A stretch of 4,055 bases of DNA. Origin: a virus (taxonomy: Duplodnaviria; Heunggongvirae; Uroviricota; Caudoviricetes). The number at the start of each line of letters is the position of its first letter. Within the stretch, counting starts at the first letter, position 1. The notes beneath the pieces were generated by a model. It was given only the letters and a program-made list of their open reading frames with translations, was not told the DNA's origin and did not search any database. Both the position numbers and the translations under genes were made by a program. The stretch is taken from IMG/VR virus record IMGVR_UViG_2690316099_000008. One strand, given 5' to 3'. Positions 1 to 4,022 of this stretch are shown here, one piece after another.

Positions 1-31
1 TCGCTCGCTCTCACCACTGAGCTAAAGGGCC
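1..31 (-). tRNA. 5' portion of a tRNA gene running off the left edge (acceptor-stem strand, D-arm, start of anticodon stem). Resembles Ile(CAU)-type tRNAs found downstream of Q in lambdoid/Stx-type phages; the anticodon lies outside the window.
   Basis: Minus strand from coordinate 31 reads GGCCCTT-TA-GCTC-AGTGGTGA-GAGC-G-AGCGA: 7-nt acceptor strand, U8, GCTC/GAGC D-stem with an 8-nt D-loop containing GG, then the anticodon-stem 5' strand. Similarity to Ile-type tRNA is from memory, not a search. Confidence 0.55.
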
Positions 32-68
32 GGGAGCAGAATAATAACGGTCCGTAATTAATTCCGCA

Positions 69-96
69 ATAAAAAACCCGCTCGGCGGCGGGTGTC
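69..96 (-). terminator. Rho-independent terminator, distal copy: GC-rich hairpin followed by a T-run on the minus strand.
   Basis: Minus strand reads ACCCGC-CGCCGA-GCGGGT followed by TTTTTTAT. The 25-nt core is identical to the copy at 170..197. Confidence 0.6.
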
Positions 97-169
97 GAAA
101 AAGCCAGCAAGCTGAAAGACAGGTATTCACCGCCACCAGCGCGTTTACTGTACTGACGCGATTTCAGTC

Positions 170-197
170 ATAAAAAACCCGCTCGGCGGCGGGTTGT
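170..197 (-). terminator. Rho-independent terminator, proximal copy (tR'-like), about 40-65 nt downstream of the predicted late transcription start.
   Basis: Minus strand reads AACCCGC-CGCCGA-GCGGGTT followed by TTTTTTAT (7-bp stem, 6-nt loop, U-tract). It sits immediately downstream of the Q gene and the pR'-like promoter. Confidence 0.6.
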
Positions 198-230: not shown

Positions 231-270
231 ATCGTTATGACGAATTTACCACAGATTCCGGAAAAATCAA
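231..270 (-). promoter_or_regulatory. Lambda pR'-like late promoter with a sigma70-dependent pause element; the Q-utilisation region.
   Basis: Minus strand: -35 TTGATT (270..265), 16-nt spacer ending in TGg (extended -10), -10 TAAATT (248..243), 6 nt, then AACGAT (236..231) followed by GGG. As I recall it, lambda pR' has the same TAAATT-N6-AACGAT-GGG arrangement. The predicted start falls on the Q stop codon. Confidence 0.6.
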
Positions 271-1089
271 CCTAGTTACCTTTTTTAACTGCCGCTCAGC
301 CCATGCTTCTTCAATATCAAACCGGGTCACCAGCGCATCATAAAATTTCTTAACTGTTTTTTCCCATGACGCGCGTGTTATCTGGTTTGTCACCTCGCAT
401 ATAGCATTAAATGCCTCCGTTGATGGTAGTCTTTCATAGCCACGACCACCACAACGCTGGCAGTCTCTGATAACAGGCATACCACGTTTTACCGACTCTT
501 CACGATGAATGGCGACACCACGCCCACGGCAATCCTTACAGGCGGTGGAAACCTCACCCTTTCCGCCACACTCCGGACAGGCAACTTTTACCACCTCCCT
601 GACTTTTTTCCATTCTTCCCAGTAAGACGGATACACACCTTTCGTACACTTTGCCCATACCGGCGGCTTACCATCCGGATACTGGACCTTGTTTGTAAAA
701 ACTACGCTTTCAATAAATTTTTCCCCATAGCAACAAGGGCACTGCTTTTTACTCGCTGCGCTGCGGGCATAATCCTCAAAAGCGTACGAAGCCATAATGC
801 GCATCACTACCGGTTTTATTTCTGCCGGAAGTTTTCTCAACGCCGCCACACGATCGCACCGACTGAGTGCATAATCTGCCAGTAATTCTGTTGCCCGCGC
901 CCTGTCATTCATACTGATGCCCATTTTCCCCAGGAACGCAGAAAACCCCATCTCAGCCCGATTCTGTGTCATGCCCTGCGCGGCCATCACATCAGTGATA
1001 CTCAGCGCATCTTTCGACGTTGAGGCCGATGCATCAGTCAGGCCGGGGGATTTTGGGGAGTAGTATTTCGGTAAATCTTCCAGTTTCAT
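235..1089 (-). CDS. Q: Late-gene antitermination protein Q-like (284 aa) with a Cys-rich zinc-binding region.
   Basis: Intact 284-aa ORF. Position is diagnostic: directly downstream of rusA (ATGA start/stop overlap) and directly upstream of a lambda-like pR'/pause element and terminator. Contains CPCC plus three CxxCxGxG repeats (aa 117-213). Family assignment rests on synteny and recalled similarity to Q82/QuuQ-type prophage antiterminators, not on a search. Confidence 0.7.
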   Translation of the reverse strand: MKLEDLPKYYSPKSPGLTDASASTSKDALSITDVMAAQGMTQNRAEMGFSAFLGKMGISMNDRARATELLADYALSRCDRVAALRKLPAEIKPVVMRIMASYAFEDYARSAASKKQCPCCYGEKFIESVVFTNKVQYPDGKPPVWAKCTKGVYPSYWEEWKKVREVVKVACPECGGKGEVSTACKDCRGRGVAIHREESVKRGMPVIRDCQRCGGRGYERLPSTEAFNAICEVTNQITRASWEKTVKKFYDALVTRFDIEEAWAERQLKKVTRLIFPESVVNSS

Positions 1090-1460
1090 TTTTTGACCTG
1101 CTCTTCATGCATTATGGGGTAAATCTTCACCCCCAGACGTCCACCAGATACTGGCTGACCACGAACGATATTGATTTCATCAAACTGCTCATCGTCCATT
1201 AACACTCCCGCATGTGTCAGTGCATCCAGTGGTGCTTTCAGGATATTGTCCAGGTCACGACGGCGCTTATCCGGTGGCTCTGCAATAATCTTTATCGCCA
1301 GTCTTCCGGACAGGCTTAATTTCAGTCGCTGCTGACGGACAATAAGCGCCACATCCCGGCGATAACGCTCACCGGCTTTTGATACAAAATATGTGTTGTC
1401 ACGACGTCGCCAGTAAGTATTCACCGTCGGCGGATAAGGTAAAATAAACTCATGGCGCAT
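1086..1460 (-). CDS. rusA: Crossover junction endodeoxyribonuclease RusA (Holliday junction resolvase), 124 aa, intact.
   Basis: Translation carries RusA hallmarks: LPYPPTVNTYWRR near the N-terminus, the acidic catalytic block PDKRRRDLDN...LMDDEQ, and GGRL near the C-terminus. Its stop overlaps the Q start (ATGA) and its start overlaps the upstream gene stop (TGATG). Confidence 0.85.
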   Translation of the reverse strand: MRHEFILPYPPTVNTYWRRRDNTYFVSKAGERYRRDVALIVRQQRLKLSLSGRLAIKIIAEPPDKRRRDLDNILKAPLDALTHAGVLMDDEQFDEINIVRGQPVSGGRLGVKIYPIMHEEQVKK

Positions 1461-2038: not shown

Positions 2039-2295
2039 CAGCGCAGCACCTCCTGCACCATTTTTTCAAACTTTCCAACTTTGGTTTCCAGCTCTGCCAC
2101 ACAATCAACGAGCTCATCCACCGCTTTTTGTGCGCGATGTTTCGCCTGCATCAGTTCCCTGAGCGCTGGCACCATATCCCGACGAATGGCATCTTTTGTT
2201 ACACCTGTTTTTTCCAGTTGTTCCGCCTGTCGCAACATTTCCTGCGCGTGTTTACGCAATTGTTCAGAGGTAAAAGTCATTGTCTGGTTGTTCAA
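2038..2295 (-). CDS. Conserved hypothetical protein, 85 aa (copy 2 of the 1460..1717 gene).
   Basis: 93% aa identity to copy 1 (6 substitutions, mostly conservative) despite about 88% nt identity. TTG start overlaps the helicase stop (TTGA) with GGAG about 8 nt upstream; alternative ATG at 2280. Confidence 0.7.
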   Translation of the reverse strand: MNNQTMTFTSEQLRKHAQEMLRQAEQLEKTGVTKDAIRRDMVPALRELMQAKHRAQKAVDELVDCVAELETKVGKFEKMVQEVLR

Positions 2296-3683
2296 AAGAA
2301 ACGCTCCATCTTACTGCTGTCGGTACGTGTATTGCTGTATCTGCGCGGCTGGGGCTGCCGCATTGGGGTGGAAAGAACCTGTGCGCTTTCCTGGTCCACA
2401 GGCAGAAAATGTCCGTTATAAAAACGCCGGTAAATCGTCCCCAGAGAACCGTTACGTTGTTTCGTGATATTAATTTCTGCTATGCCTGTAGCCTGTGTAT
2501 CCGGGTTGTACACTTCATCCCTGTAAAGCATCAGAATGATGTCTGCATCCGCCTCTATTTCTCCGGAATTTTTCAGGTCTGAGTTCATGGGACGTTTATT
2601 GGGTCTGGACTCCACACCGCGGGAGAGCTGGCTCAGCGCAATCAACGGAAAACCACCGGATTTTGCCAGGCCTTTAAGCCCCTTTGAGATTTCACCCACG
2701 GCAAGGTCATGACGCCCCGTGGTTCGGGTTTTTATCAGCCCGAGATAATCAACCACCACCAGCGCCGTTTCCGGATGTTTAATCAGATGGTGTTTCGTTG
2801 TTGCGCATATCTCATCAATGGTCAGGTTCGCCTGGTCCACCATCCAGATATTGCGCCCGGTCATCCGCCCCACCCCTTGTGAGAAACGCGCCCAGTCTTC
2901 ATCTTCAAAGTGAGCCACAGATTTCAGGCGTGATACTGGCATCCCTCCAGCCGCAGACACCATACGTTCACCAATCTGGATGTTCGCCATCTCCATGGTG
3001 AACAGAAGCACACCATGCCCCTGCTCAGTCACCTTGTCGATGATGTCCAGCGCAAGTTCGGTTTTCCCCATCGAAGGACGGGCGGCAATGAATACCAGGT
3101 CTCCGGGCTCCATACCGCCTGTTTTTGCGTCCAGTTCATCAATACCGGTCATCAACGTCCTGGATTTCTCCAGCCCCTGATTCCGGCATTCAACACGCTC
3201 AACCACTTCCGGAAGCACATCATCAATATGTACCGGCTGAATGACGCCCTTTCCTGTCGACAGTGTGACCATCATGTTCTGCGCATCCTTCAGGGCATCT
3301 TCAGCTGCTTCACAGGTATGCGCATCACGTAATTTCTGCAGCGCCTCATTCAGTGTTTTTTCTGCATCGCGCAGTGCGGCATTGCGCCGCAACGCTGCAA
3401 CATAGTGCTCCAGTGAAGACTTCACCCAGGTTTTACGCCCGGTATCAGTAATCACCGGGGCAAGTTCCGGCATCTCATTACACAACAGCACGGGGTCAAT
3501 CACTCCTGAAACACGGGCCTGTCTGCAGATGCCTGTGTAGATATCCCGATACGCTCGTACAGAAAAAATGTCCGCCGGTAGTGTGATCAGAATATCCATC
3601 ACTTCATGATCTGCCCCACGCAGAAAGAATGCGCCAATGACAGCGCCTTCCAGGTCATCATTACGCCAGACTGGTGTTGTCAT
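2292..3683 (-). CDS. DnaB-family replicative DNA helicase, phage-encoded, 464 aa from the ATG at 3683.
   Basis: Walker A GDLVFIAARPSMGKT; DnaB C-terminal domain blocks (VVVDYLGLI, LSQLSRGVESRPNKRPMNSDLKNSGEIEADADIILMLYRDEVY, KQRNGSLGTI); DnaB N-terminal domain similarity. GAGGTG Shine-Dalgarno 7 nt upstream of the ATG. The longer 510-aa ORF in the track starts at a GTG inside the IS2 end and is rejected. Confidence 0.85.
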   Translation of the reverse strand: MTTPVWRNDDLEGAVIGAFFLRGADHEVMDILITLPADIFSVRAYRDIYTGICRQARVSGVIDPVLLCNEMPELAPVITDTGRKTWVKSSLEHYVAALRRNAALRDAEKTLNEALQKLRDAHTCEAAEDALKDAQNMMVTLSTGKGVIQPVHIDDVLPEVVERVECRNQGLEKSRTLMTGIDELDAKTGGMEPGDLVFIAARPSMGKTELALDIIDKVTEQGHGVLLFTMEMANIQIGERMVSAAGGMPVSRLKSVAHFEDEDWARFSQGVGRMTGRNIWMVDQANLTIDEICATTKHHLIKHPETALVVVDYLGLIKTRTTGRHDLAVGEISKGLKGLAKSGGFPLIALSQLSRGVESRPNKRPMNSDLKNSGEIEADADIILMLYRDEVYNPDTQATGIAEINITKQRNGSLGTIYRRFYNGHFLPVDQESAQVLSTPMRQPQPRRYSNTRTDSSKMERFF

Positions 3684-3787
3684 GCAGCCACACCTCTGAT
3701 ACAAGAACGGTAGCTGGGCCAGTTGAACGACAACCAGTTGCGCCCCCCGTCTGTGATCCTGTCGGCAATGCGGGGGCTGATGAACGC

Positions 3788-3840
3788 TGGATTTGCCCCT
3801 ATATTTCCAGACACCTGTTATCACTTAACCCATTACTGGC
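3788..3840 (-). mobile_element. IS2 right terminal inverted repeat (outer end at 3788, element interior toward higher coordinates), running into the N gap.
   Basis: Plus strand TGGATTTGCCCCTATATTTCCAGACACCTGTTATCACTTAACCCATTAC is the reverse complement of the IS2 right end as I recall it. It lies 104 bp upstream of the helicase start codon. Confidence 0.75.
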
Positions 3841-4022
3841 NNNNNNNNNNNNNNNNNNNNNNNNNNNNNNNNNNNNNNNNNNNNNNNNNNNNNNNNNNNN
3901 NNNNNNNNNNNNNNNNNNNNNNNNNNNNNNNNNNNNNNNNNNNNNNNNNNNNNNNNNNNNNNNNNNNNNNNNNNNNNNNNNNNNNNNNNNNNNNNNNNNN
4001 NNNNNNNNNNNNNNNNNNNNNN
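3841..4022. other. Assembly gap (182 N).
   Basis: Run of n characters; presumably the collapsed IS2 body and/or unknown sequence. Confidence 0.95.

Follow-up and report, generated by a model that had tools for sequence, protein, structure and literature searches.

The Q protein of phage lambda (PDB 4MO1 and 7UBJ-7UBN) has a single Cys4 zinc site (PMC9388147), as an earlier sequence-only reading of the DNA described here had stated. The Q21 and Q82 families (PF06530 and PF06323) share the regulatory role and lambdoid gene position of the protein analysed here (PMC9388147) but have unrelated folds, and neither profile was matched by it in a Pfam scan. To its own family belong Q of phage phi80 (gp17, AFV29194.1, 269 aa), the record of which is annotated as a studied antiterminator with pR' and Q site, and QuuQ (YdfT, b1559, 250 aa) of E. 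coli K-12, both with four Cys repeats: CDCCDGGG, CKPCNGKG, CR-CHGKG and CDRCGGRG in phi80 Q, where the third repeat is a CxC, and CEHCSGTG, CQHCHGKG, CRGCKGKG and CGRCNGNR in QuuQ. A search of the PDB found no structure of such a long-form Q, and no account of a second zinc site was found in the literature on Q antitermination with DnaJ/CXXCXGXG, QuuQ or phi80 gp17; papers on Gifsy-1 AntQ and on Chi phage touch on Q types but say nothing of zinc.

A long-form Q gene in the window

The window, a stretch of 4,055 nt of tailed-phage DNA, contains on its minus strand an ORF of 284 aa (235..1089, stop codon TAA at 235-237), composed of 273 native residues and an 11-aa read-through tail. The sequence-only reading had taken it for a Q-like antiterminator, and this was borne out: the ORF matched Pfam Antiterm (PF03589; E=7e-55, 183.6 bits, cut-off 26.7), which places it within an antiterminator family and not a non-antiterminator one, as well as PHROG 127, 'anti-termination protein Q-like' (E=3e-111). 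Alignment with lambda Q (PDB 7ubm, phmmer E=4e-40) showed homology over residues 1-113 and 182-273, including the equivalents of C118, C121, C144 and C147 of lambda Q, and the AF2 model of the full-length protein (mean pLDDT 86.5) had the engaged-state chain 7ubn_Q as its top PDB match in Foldseek (E=4.5e-13, TM 0.77 on the target). An identical protein is on deposit from Shigella sonnei under the name antitermination protein, and the ORF is 98-99% identical to a 273-aa protein with a cluster of 3,739 members. The gene encodes an ordinary member of the lambda Q family, a late-gene antiterminator very common in prophages, in the long form of phi80 and K-12 QuuQ. The lengths contrasted earlier, 284 aa against 207 aa for lambda Q, are correct, although only 273 aa are native.

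The protein resembles phi80 Q and QuuQ in its N-terminal region, its body, its four Cys repeats and their fixed spacings of 13 and 26, and is 41% identical to phi80 Q overall and 54% within the module that sets the long form apart. The spacing between repeats 1 and 2, which determines the length of a hairpin, is 54 in the window protein and in phi80 Q and 35 in QuuQ, and the window allele differs from both in having a degenerate repeat 1 and the C-terminal tail. Lambda Q also has a zinc ribbon of two CxxCxGxG repeats, but lacks residues 114-181 with repeats 1 and 2 and the hairpin, so that its arm has 39 residues against about 107 here. About 46% of complete E. coli genomes were found to carry the long form, and relatives also occur in some Stx-converting phages. 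The proposal that the protein would be a structurally distinct Q variant was not supported: the long form is the majority of the family, includes phi80 Q and QuuQ, and is already known through these and through existing database matches to DnaJ_CXXCXGXG (PF00684 in precomputed annotation). The textbook structures of lambda Q stand for a short form that is in the minority within the family; in most members the arm is almost three times longer and has a probable second zinc site, and the practical value of the present analysis lies in annotation and structure rather than in discovery. We consider the locus as a whole likely to be explained by a late antiterminator of the lambda Q family in its long form, with two tandem zinc ribbons, the second of them an accessory cassette.

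Candidate late promoter and neighbouring features

A candidate late promoter pR' (231..270, minus strand) was identified by gap-free alignment with lambda pR' and phi80 pR', and consists of a -35 sequence TTGATT (270-265), a 16-bp spacer carrying a putative Q-binding element (QBE) TTTCCGGAA, and a -10 sequence TAAATT (248-243), followed downstream by the sigma-dependent pause element AACGAT (236-231) and GGG. The layout TTGATT-16-TAAATT-6-AACGATGGG is the same as that of lambda pR' (TTGACT-17-TAAATT-6-AACGATGGG), including the pause element, and the phi80 record has a Q site TCGCGGA annotated at the place equivalent to a similar TCCGGA in the window spacer. A consensus promoter scan of positions 1-1200 flagged no promoter, and pR' was found only by the alignment to lambda and phi80; it matches the consensus at 8/12 positions, one fewer than lambda pR'. 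A terminator scan located the first intrinsic terminator 3' of pR', which is tR'-like, at 168..195 (minus strand; stem AACCCGCCGCCGAGCGGGTT plus T-run) and a second copy of the same terminator at 68..93 (minus strand), the latter being the only copy present in the reference E. coli locus. The window edge truncates a tRNA-Ile gene, the 5' part of which occupies 1..37 (minus strand), as shown by alignment with the annotated tRNA-Ile of L004; Q-dependent late transcription reaches this gene first. ARAGORN called no tRNA in the window because of the truncation. Directly upstream of Q lies rusA, encoding a Holliday-junction resolvase (1086..1460, minus strand; Pfam RusA E=2e-16). The start codon of Q overlaps the rusA stop codon (ATGA), the two genes are translationally coupled, and the rusA-Q gene order is repeated in related phages and prophages.

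By homology with lambda, Q would bind the Q-binding element between -35 and -10 of pR', a promoter expected directly after the Q stop codon and here overlapping it, and would engage RNA polymerase (RNAP) paused at the AACGAT sigma-dependent pause element, with its conserved N-terminal 44 residues entering the RNA-exit channel as a nozzle. The polymerase so modified would then pass two intrinsic terminators and transcribe the tRNA and late genes.

Cysteine repeats, probable zinc sites and the resemblance to DnaJ

Residues 1-44 (958..1089; all positions in this section are on the minus strand) lie within the residue-for-residue alignment to lambda Q 1-113 and correspond to the part of lambda Q that refolds to form a nozzle within the RNA-exit channel (PMC9388147); M1, K8, K13, T24, L29 and D33 of this segment were invariant in the homologue alignment. 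Residues 45-113 (751..957) form the first half of the helical Q body according to the lambda Q alignment and the AF2 model (helices 46-108, pLDDT >90), and residues 221-273 (271..429, aligned with lambda Q 157-207) form the second half, with HTH and C-terminal helix (AF2 helices 223-233 and 239-275). Between these halves, the phmmer alignment breaks at 113/182 and delimits a 68-aa insertion relative to lambda Q (residues 114-181, 547..750), the proposed second zinc ribbon or ZnII module. It opens with the degenerate repeat 1, CPCCYGEK (residues 117-124, 718..741), containing the conserved cysteines C117 and C120, continues with a long two-stranded beta hairpin predicted by AF2 (residues 125-170, 580..717) and closes with repeat 2, CPECGGKG (residues 171-178, 556..579), recognised by motif scan and homologue alignment. 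The arm that follows (residues 182-220, 430..546) aligns to lambda Q 116-156 and is homologous to its zinc ribbon (ZnI); it contains repeat 3, CKDCRGRG (residues 184-191, 517..540), and repeat 4, CQRCGGRG (residues 210-217, 439..462), both found by motif scan, and its C184, C187, G189, G191, C210, C213, G215 and G217 were invariant.

The motifs reported from the sequence alone, CPCC at 117-120 (nt 730-741) and the three exact repeats, were all found at the residues given, and the span 451-741 assigned to them covers Cys117 to Cys213, although it stops short of the final GGRG of repeat 4 (439-450). Shuffling of the protein 200,000 times gave 282 sequences with one CxxCxGxG and none with two or more, so three such motifs are far beyond chance. 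CPCC was seen to open a fourth repeat, at which the family consensus is C-D-C-C-x-G-x-G; four CxxCxGxG repeats are the family consensus, of which the Q ORF itself has three exact copies plus CPCCYGEK, lacking the last glycine. Among homologues, the two cysteines and first glycine of repeat 1 were each present in 204/207, with the last position a glycine in 178 and a lysine in 17. All eight cysteines were kept in 197/249 aligned sequences; the module with its four cysteines was present in about 200 long forms and absent from 37 short forms, which retain only the lambda-like four. The spacing between repeats 2 and 3 was 13 in 197/197 sequences and that between repeats 3 and 4 was 25-26 in 195/197, with length variation confined to the spacing between repeats 1 and 2, which ranged from 14 to 63.

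Lambda Q binds its zinc through two CxxCxGxG repeats (PMC9388147), which are the homologues of repeats 3 and 4, and the insertion supplies repeats 1 and 2. This removes the earlier contrast between a DnaJ-like module here and the lambda Q site, the latter being itself made of two such homologous repeats. Repeats 3 and 4 (C184, C187, C210, C213) would form a zinc site homologous to that of lambda Q, and superposition of the ZnI part of an arm-only model on lambda Q chains covered 40-44 residues at 2.1-2.9 A. Judging from conservation and modelling, the four extra conserved cysteines are very probably the ligands of a second Zn(Cys)4 site, in which repeats 1 and 2 (C117, C120, C171, C174) would clamp the base of the 46-residue beta hairpin. 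This site would lie within the 68-aa insertion, a self-contained cassette at the point where body and arm meet. We infer zinc binding at this second site from the conservation of C117, C120, C171 and C174 and the glycines that follow them, which was about 99% in long forms down to about 35% identity, with the intervening sequence variable. The same pattern makes it very improbable that the extra cysteines are metal-free, as disulfides or part of a flexible spacer, in what would be a single-zinc Q with a long loop: the hairpin tip was modelled at low confidence (pLDDT 66-68 for residues 141-160), which would suit such a loop, but the knuckle regions were modelled at pLDDT 85-95, and the cytoplasm is a reducing environment, which argues against disulfides. 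A duplication of the Antiterm zinc ribbon was rejected as the origin of the insertion, which, scanned alone, gave no Antiterm match and only weak zinc-ribbon, anti-TRAP and DnaJ matches.

The DnaJ-like character proposed earlier was statistically detectable in sequence and fold. PF00684 scored 29.2 bits with the whole protein (cut-off 32.7), 33.6 bits with the arm alone and 23.1 bits with lambda Q; hhalign against E. coli DnaJ residues 178-217 gave a probability of 92%, the arm profile matched 1EXK at E=3e-4, and the only structural neighbours of the arm-only model, which had a mediocre mean pLDDT of 73.9, were the DnaJ cysteine-rich domain (1EXK) and anti-TRAP (2BX9). With DnaJ PF00684 and anti-TRAP the protein shares this profile similarity and the CxxCxGxG repeats, four at the family level, and two Zn(Cys)4 centres are predicted here as in the DnaJ cysteine-rich domain. 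The interleaved wiring of DnaJ (1+4 and 2+3) was contradicted by several indirect lines of evidence that converge. The wiring is most likely tandem (1+2 and 3+4), as indicated by secondary structure, indel pattern and homology: lambda Q pairs repeats 3 and 4, only the spacing between repeats 1 and 2 varies, the module moves as a whole, and AF2 places a hairpin between repeats 1 and 2, with antiparallel strands 125-136 and 159-170 whether the whole protein or the arm alone was modelled. The partner of the 'outer' knuckle would come from the N-terminal side via the long hairpin, which looks like a permuted DnaJ layout, and we conclude that the second, removable module resembles the cysteine-rich repeats of DnaJ and anti-TRAP in sequence but probably differs from the DnaJ domain in wiring.

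We see little chance that the four repeats are instead a true DnaJ-type domain, an interleaved and V-shaped double-zinc module grafted onto Q. The number of repeats in the family, the PF00684 scores of 29-34 bits and the hhalign and profile matches to DnaJ would all fit such a domain, and repeats 2 and 3, 13 residues apart, could in principle share a zinc as in anti-TRAP, in which one zinc is shared by two repeats 14 residues apart. However, lambda Q has repeats 3 and 4 only and binds zinc by exactly those four cysteines, and the segment of repeats 3 and 4 shows 63-88% identity between the long and short members of a pair and, in the model, can be superposed on that of lambda Q. Natural variants moreover lose repeats 1 and 2 jointly and keep a complete site, a loss that with interleaving would break both centres, and length varies solely between these two repeats. 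Pfam and NCBIfam scans found no J domain, G/F region or DnaJ C-terminal domain in the Q ORF, and the NCBIfam DnaJ equivalog scored 28 bits against a cut-off of 377. A chaperone or redox role was rejected, as there is no J-protein context and the gene occupies the canonical Q slot. The DnaJ-related arm explains the database mis-naming of some long-form Q proteins as 'chaperone protein DnaJ'.

Possible role of the cassette and condition of this allele

The behaviour of the module as a cassette was directly seen in natural pairs of homologues. Of P0138 (271 aa) and P0123 (207 aa), only P0138 has the module, and the rest of the two proteins is 93% identical; in a second long/short pair, P0251/P0282, the junction is not the same. 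Between 70 bp upstream of the -35 and the pause site, a single base distinguishes the pR'/QBE region of P0138 from that of P0123. The cassette would accordingly seem accessory, with close relatives using the same promoter with and without it, and such pairs, differing by the cassette but sharing a promoter, are a ready-made experiment on the module.

The cassette would most likely provide an extra contact that is not sequence-specific, or act as a stabiliser, in the loading complex. It would lie beside the residues by which lambda Q contacts the RNAP beta' zinc-binding domain. A more specific proposal, which we put forward only tentatively, is that the second ribbon, as a permuted and tandem-wired relative of DnaJ, is a functional, swappable cassette giving the phi80/QuuQ class a contact in the loading or loaded complex that lambda Q lacks; partners may be, for example, the RNAP beta' zinc-binding domain, NusA or upstream DNA. 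It is improbable that the extra module sets specificity by reading a further DNA element within an extended Q-binding site. The arm of lambda Q contacts QBE positions 11-13 beside the zinc ligands (PMC9388147), and spacer sequence differs between phi80-type and lambda-type promoters, both of which would suit a module that reads DNA; against this stand the near-identical pR' regions of P0138 and P0123, and the insertion, which at 51% is less conserved than any other region of the long forms (59-68%).

The window allele carries an 8-bp deletion relative to E. coli 2013C-4991 that took away the normal TAA stop and added the 11-codon read-through tail LIFPESVVNSS (238..270, minus strand), in contrast to its homologues, which almost all terminate at ...KVTR with 273 aa. 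The C-terminal helix of lambda Q contacts the RNAP flap-tip helix (PMC9388147). The tail sits at the corresponding helix, so that the 284-aa allele counts as a putatively active antiterminator; AF2 modelled residues 279-284 at pLDDT <50. This raises the question of whether the window copy is a decaying, non-functional Q of a cryptic prophage, with motifs that are inherited but irrelevant here. The 11 added residues run through the gene's own promoter, repeat 1 is degenerate, the assembly around the gene has duplicated and broken rusA and helicase fragments with N gaps, and K-12 QuuQ itself resides in the cryptic prophage Qin. We nevertheless regard decay as unlikely. The ORF is otherwise intact and nearly identical to the 273-aa protein of the large cluster, and no damage is seen in the eight cysteines, the N-terminal region or the pR'/terminator/tRNA context. 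The CxxCxGxK form of repeat 1 is present in 17 other homologues, and the 284-aa allele was found again on 10 contigs and in four complete genomes that lack the indel.

A lambda-type Q protein with an insertion at its arm

The sole long ORF spanning nt 451-741 is located at 235..1089 on the minus strand and encodes 284 aa. All four cysteine motifs listed in the sequence-only reading were found in its translation at the residues given there, namely CPCC (117-120), CPECGGKG (171-178), CKDCRGRG (184-191) and CQRCGGRG (210-217), here called repeats 1 to 4; the span 451-741 covers Cys117 to Cys213, but stops before the four residues (nt 439-450) that end the final motif. After shuffling of the protein, one CxxCxGxG motif was present in 282 of 200,000 sequences, and two in 0/200,000.

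HMM searches confirmed that the protein is a Q antiterminator, with 183.6 bits for the lambda Q family (Pfam Antiterm/PF03589, cut-off 26.7) and E ~1e-111 for the 'anti-termination protein Q-like' families of PHROGs. NCBIfam gave only weak, partial DnaJ or anti-TRAP matches, and scans with Pfam and NCBIfam showed no J-protein context for the window Q. The top match in a PDB sequence search was lambda Q (7ubm, E=4e-40), which aligned in two pieces, with residues 1-113 matching lambda Q 1-113 and residues 182-273 matching 116-207, so that the protein corresponds to lambda Q plus 68 inserted residues (114-181). These enter where the arm of lambda Q begins; this 'Q-lambda arm' of Yin et al. is a type I shuffled zinc ribbon (residues 114-152) which contacts positions 11-13 of the Q-binding element, QBE (PMC9388147). 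A DnaJ-like module had been contrasted with a different kind of site in lambda Q, but the single Cys4 site of lambda Q already consists of two CxxCxGxG repeats, CRDCHGTG and CGRCKGVG, which align with and are homologous to repeats 3 and 4, while CPCC and CPECGGKG are supplied by the insertion.

Long and short forms of Q and the pairing of the cysteines

Homologues found by searching with the window protein, by searching with lambda Q and among 50%-identity representatives were aligned together, giving 249 near-full-length sequences. All eight cysteines were present in 197 of these (long forms), and 37/249 had no insertion and only the four lambda-like cysteines (short forms); the majority of the full-length 50%-identity representatives were also long forms. 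Repeat 1 is usually complete in long forms (consensus C-[DPS]-C-C-x-G-x-G; of 207 sequences, 204 have the Cys, Cys and Gly, and 178 end in Gly), the window CPCCYGEK being, by this alignment, a slightly degenerate version, and at family level long-form Q has four repeats, as does DnaJ. Long forms include the phage phi80 Q (gp17, 269 aa; 41% identical overall, 54% in the insertion), E. coli K-12 QuuQ/YdfT (250 aa, four repeats), and those of ES18, Fels-1, mEp460 and several Stx2c-converting phages. The window Q gene was found at at least 80% nucleotide identity in 2,495 of 5,426 complete E. coli genomes, and the identical 284-aa protein is on deposit as 'antitermination protein [Shigella sonnei]'. 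The structurally distinct Q variant that had been envisaged is not new: the protein is already in the databases, and its architecture is the one usual among the phi80/QuuQ-type proteins, which make up most of the lambda Q family. PF00684 is already part of the precomputed annotation of most long forms, and two of these (P0033 and P0238) have the source names 'chaperone protein DnaJ' and 'DnaJ-class molecular chaperone', annotation errors due to the CxxCxGxG repeats. One homologue (P0001, 337 aa) contains the repeat 1-2 module twice, with CPCC at 22 and 181 and CPEC at 76 and 235, probably as the result of mis-assembly or fusion.

The cysteine-rich domain of DnaJ is defined by interleaved coordination, with repeat 1 paired to repeat 4 and repeat 2 to repeat 3 (PDB 1EXK). 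For long-form Q, homology to lambda Q, repeat spacing, natural variants and AF2 models argue for a tandem arrangement (1+2, 3+4). The zinc of lambda Q is bound by the counterparts of repeats 3 and 4 (PMC9388147, and our alignment), and in an AF2 model of the arm alone (mean pLDDT 73.9), 40-44 residues of the repeat 3-4 part superpose on crystal and cryo-EM chains of lambda Q at 2.1-2.9 A. Among the 197 eight-cysteine homologues, the spacing between repeats 2 and 3 is 13 residues in all 197, and that between repeats 3 and 4 is 25-26 in 195, with the repeat 1-2 spacing ranging from 14 to 63; the two ends of a segment so variable in length would have to share one place in space, as the knuckles of one zinc ribbon do. 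In two Pectobacterium proteins, P0138 (271 aa) and P0123 (207 aa), identity is 93% once the insertion is left aside, and a 66-aa module is cleanly present in the first and absent from the second; P0251 and P0282 form a second long/short pair with another junction, and P0169 is an apparent recombinant at the same point as the module junction. Since repeats 1 and 2 are lost together and a working lambda-type site is kept, interleaved wiring is incompatible with these variants. In the full-length AF2 model (mean pLDDT 86.5, knuckle regions 85-95), repeats 1 and 2 directly flank long antiparallel strands (125-136 and 159-170), and we infer the geometry of the repeat 1+2 site. Of the DnaJ-like double-zinc module proposed earlier, the predicted second zinc site and the DnaJ-like repeats are thus retained, but the wiring is most likely tandem and not that of DnaJ.

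The resemblance of the Q arm to DnaJ is genuine but partial. PF00684 (DnaJ_CXXCXGXG) scored 33.6 bits against the arm alone and 29.2 bits against the whole protein, slightly below the cut-off of 32.7. A profile of the arm matched lambda Q first (5e-11), followed by 1EXK (E=3e-4) and DnaJA3 (7.5e-4), and placed Q repeats 2-3-4 on DnaJ repeats 1-2-3; hhalign placed Q repeats 2-3 on repeats 3-4 of E. coli DnaJ (probability 92%). Probably, the arm and the DnaJ domain are both CxxCxGxG zinc-knuckle modules of one broad class, in which lambda Q has what resembles a single-centre version like that of anti-TRAP, and long forms have a predicted two-centre version. In contrast to DnaJ, the partner of the outer knuckle of Q is predicted to be N-terminal, via a hairpin, instead of a fourth C-terminal repeat.

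The pR' (late promoter) regions of P0138 and P0123 differ by one base, and so the module is unlikely to dictate DNA-site specificity and, judged from these sequences, behaves as an accessory. The module is inserted beside the lambda Q residues which contact the RNAP beta' zinc-binding domain (110-112, 117 and 122-126; PMC9388147), and its most plausible, if speculative, role is therefore to add a contact with RNAP or the DNA backbone, or to stabilise the arm. No long-form Q chain was present among the PDB sequences searched, and no description of the second zinc ribbon was found in the searchable literature. In the two Pectobacterium prophage loci (L005 1501-2316 and L006 1501-2124), the Q proteins are 93% identical save for the 66-aa zinc module, with essentially identical pR'; an AcrIF11-like ADP-ribosyltransferase gene lies between the Q and holin genes in L005 only. 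In the E. coli K-12 Qin prophage, ynfU, encoding a small 'putative zinc-binding protein', is located ~1.5 kb downstream of quuQ (L007 2806-2976). The YnfU family model weakly matched repeat 2 of the window protein, and YnfU may be another small CxxC-knuckle protein of the same late region.

Candidate late promoter and leader downstream of the window Q gene

The Q start overlaps rusA at ATGA, and codon 273 is directly followed by a candidate lambda-like late promoter on the minus strand, with a -35 TTGATT (270-265) and, by alignment with lambda and phi80, a -10 TAAATT (248-243). The 16 bp spacer holds TTTCCGGAA, set against the Q site TCGCGGA annotated, together with pR', in the phi80 record. 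A sigma-dependent pause element with G-tract, AACGATGGG (236-228, minus strand), starts six bases past the -10 and is identical to that of lambda. Further downstream on this strand, a terminator scan identified two intrinsic terminators (195-176 and 93-76), followed by the 5′ part of a tRNA-Ile gene (1-37), which is cut by the window edge and consequently was not matched by ARAGORN. Its sequence is the same as that of the tRNA-Ile annotated after Q in a related locus (L004), where a tRNA-Arg is next. The reference E. coli locus lacks a segment of ~101 bp (94-195) in which the terminator ACCCGCCGCCGAGCGGGTTTTTT occurs a second time, and the late leader of the window therefore has two tandem terminators; 93-195 alone matches many Stx-converting and other prophages (89-94%).

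The N-terminal 44 residues, which in lambda Q make up the nozzle of the exit channel (PMC9388147), are in our alignment some of the most conserved in the family. Given this conservation and the lambda-like layout of pR', pause and terminators, we assign the lambda Q mechanism to the window protein by homology: it would bind the QBE, then capture the sigma-dependent paused complex and form a nozzle in the RNA-exit channel, allowing the polymerase to read through the terminators.

The window allele and its assembly

Relative to E. coli 2013C-4991, 8 bp located between short direct repeats (AGGTAACA) are deleted in the window; they include the normal TAA stop of Q, and hence the ORF continues for 11 codons. 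This extension (235-275, minus strand) passes through the -35, spacer and -10 of its own pR', and ends at a TAA overlapping the AACGAT pause element. AF2 predicts the 11-aa tail to be disordered; as the C-terminal helix of lambda Q touches the RNAP flap-tip helix (PMC9388147), the tail might conceivably alter the activity of this allele. The 284-aa allele was found again in several assemblies.

Upstream of Q lies a direct repeat (1303-1602 and 1881-2180, 91% identical, 578 bp apart). Two copies each are present of the 5′ portion of rusA, of an ORF for an 85-aa coiled-coil protein (1460-1717 and 2038-2295) and of the 3′ end of a DnaB-like helicase gene (fragment at 1714-1875). A single 'n' at 1880, at the junction, suggests that two related copies of a prophage were joined during scaffolding, rather than a true tandem duplication. 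The DnaB-like helicase gene itself (2292-3824; Pfam DnaB_C, E=1e-72) lies just downstream of an assembly gap of 182 N (3841-4022), and the listed GTG start of its ORF is probably too far upstream.
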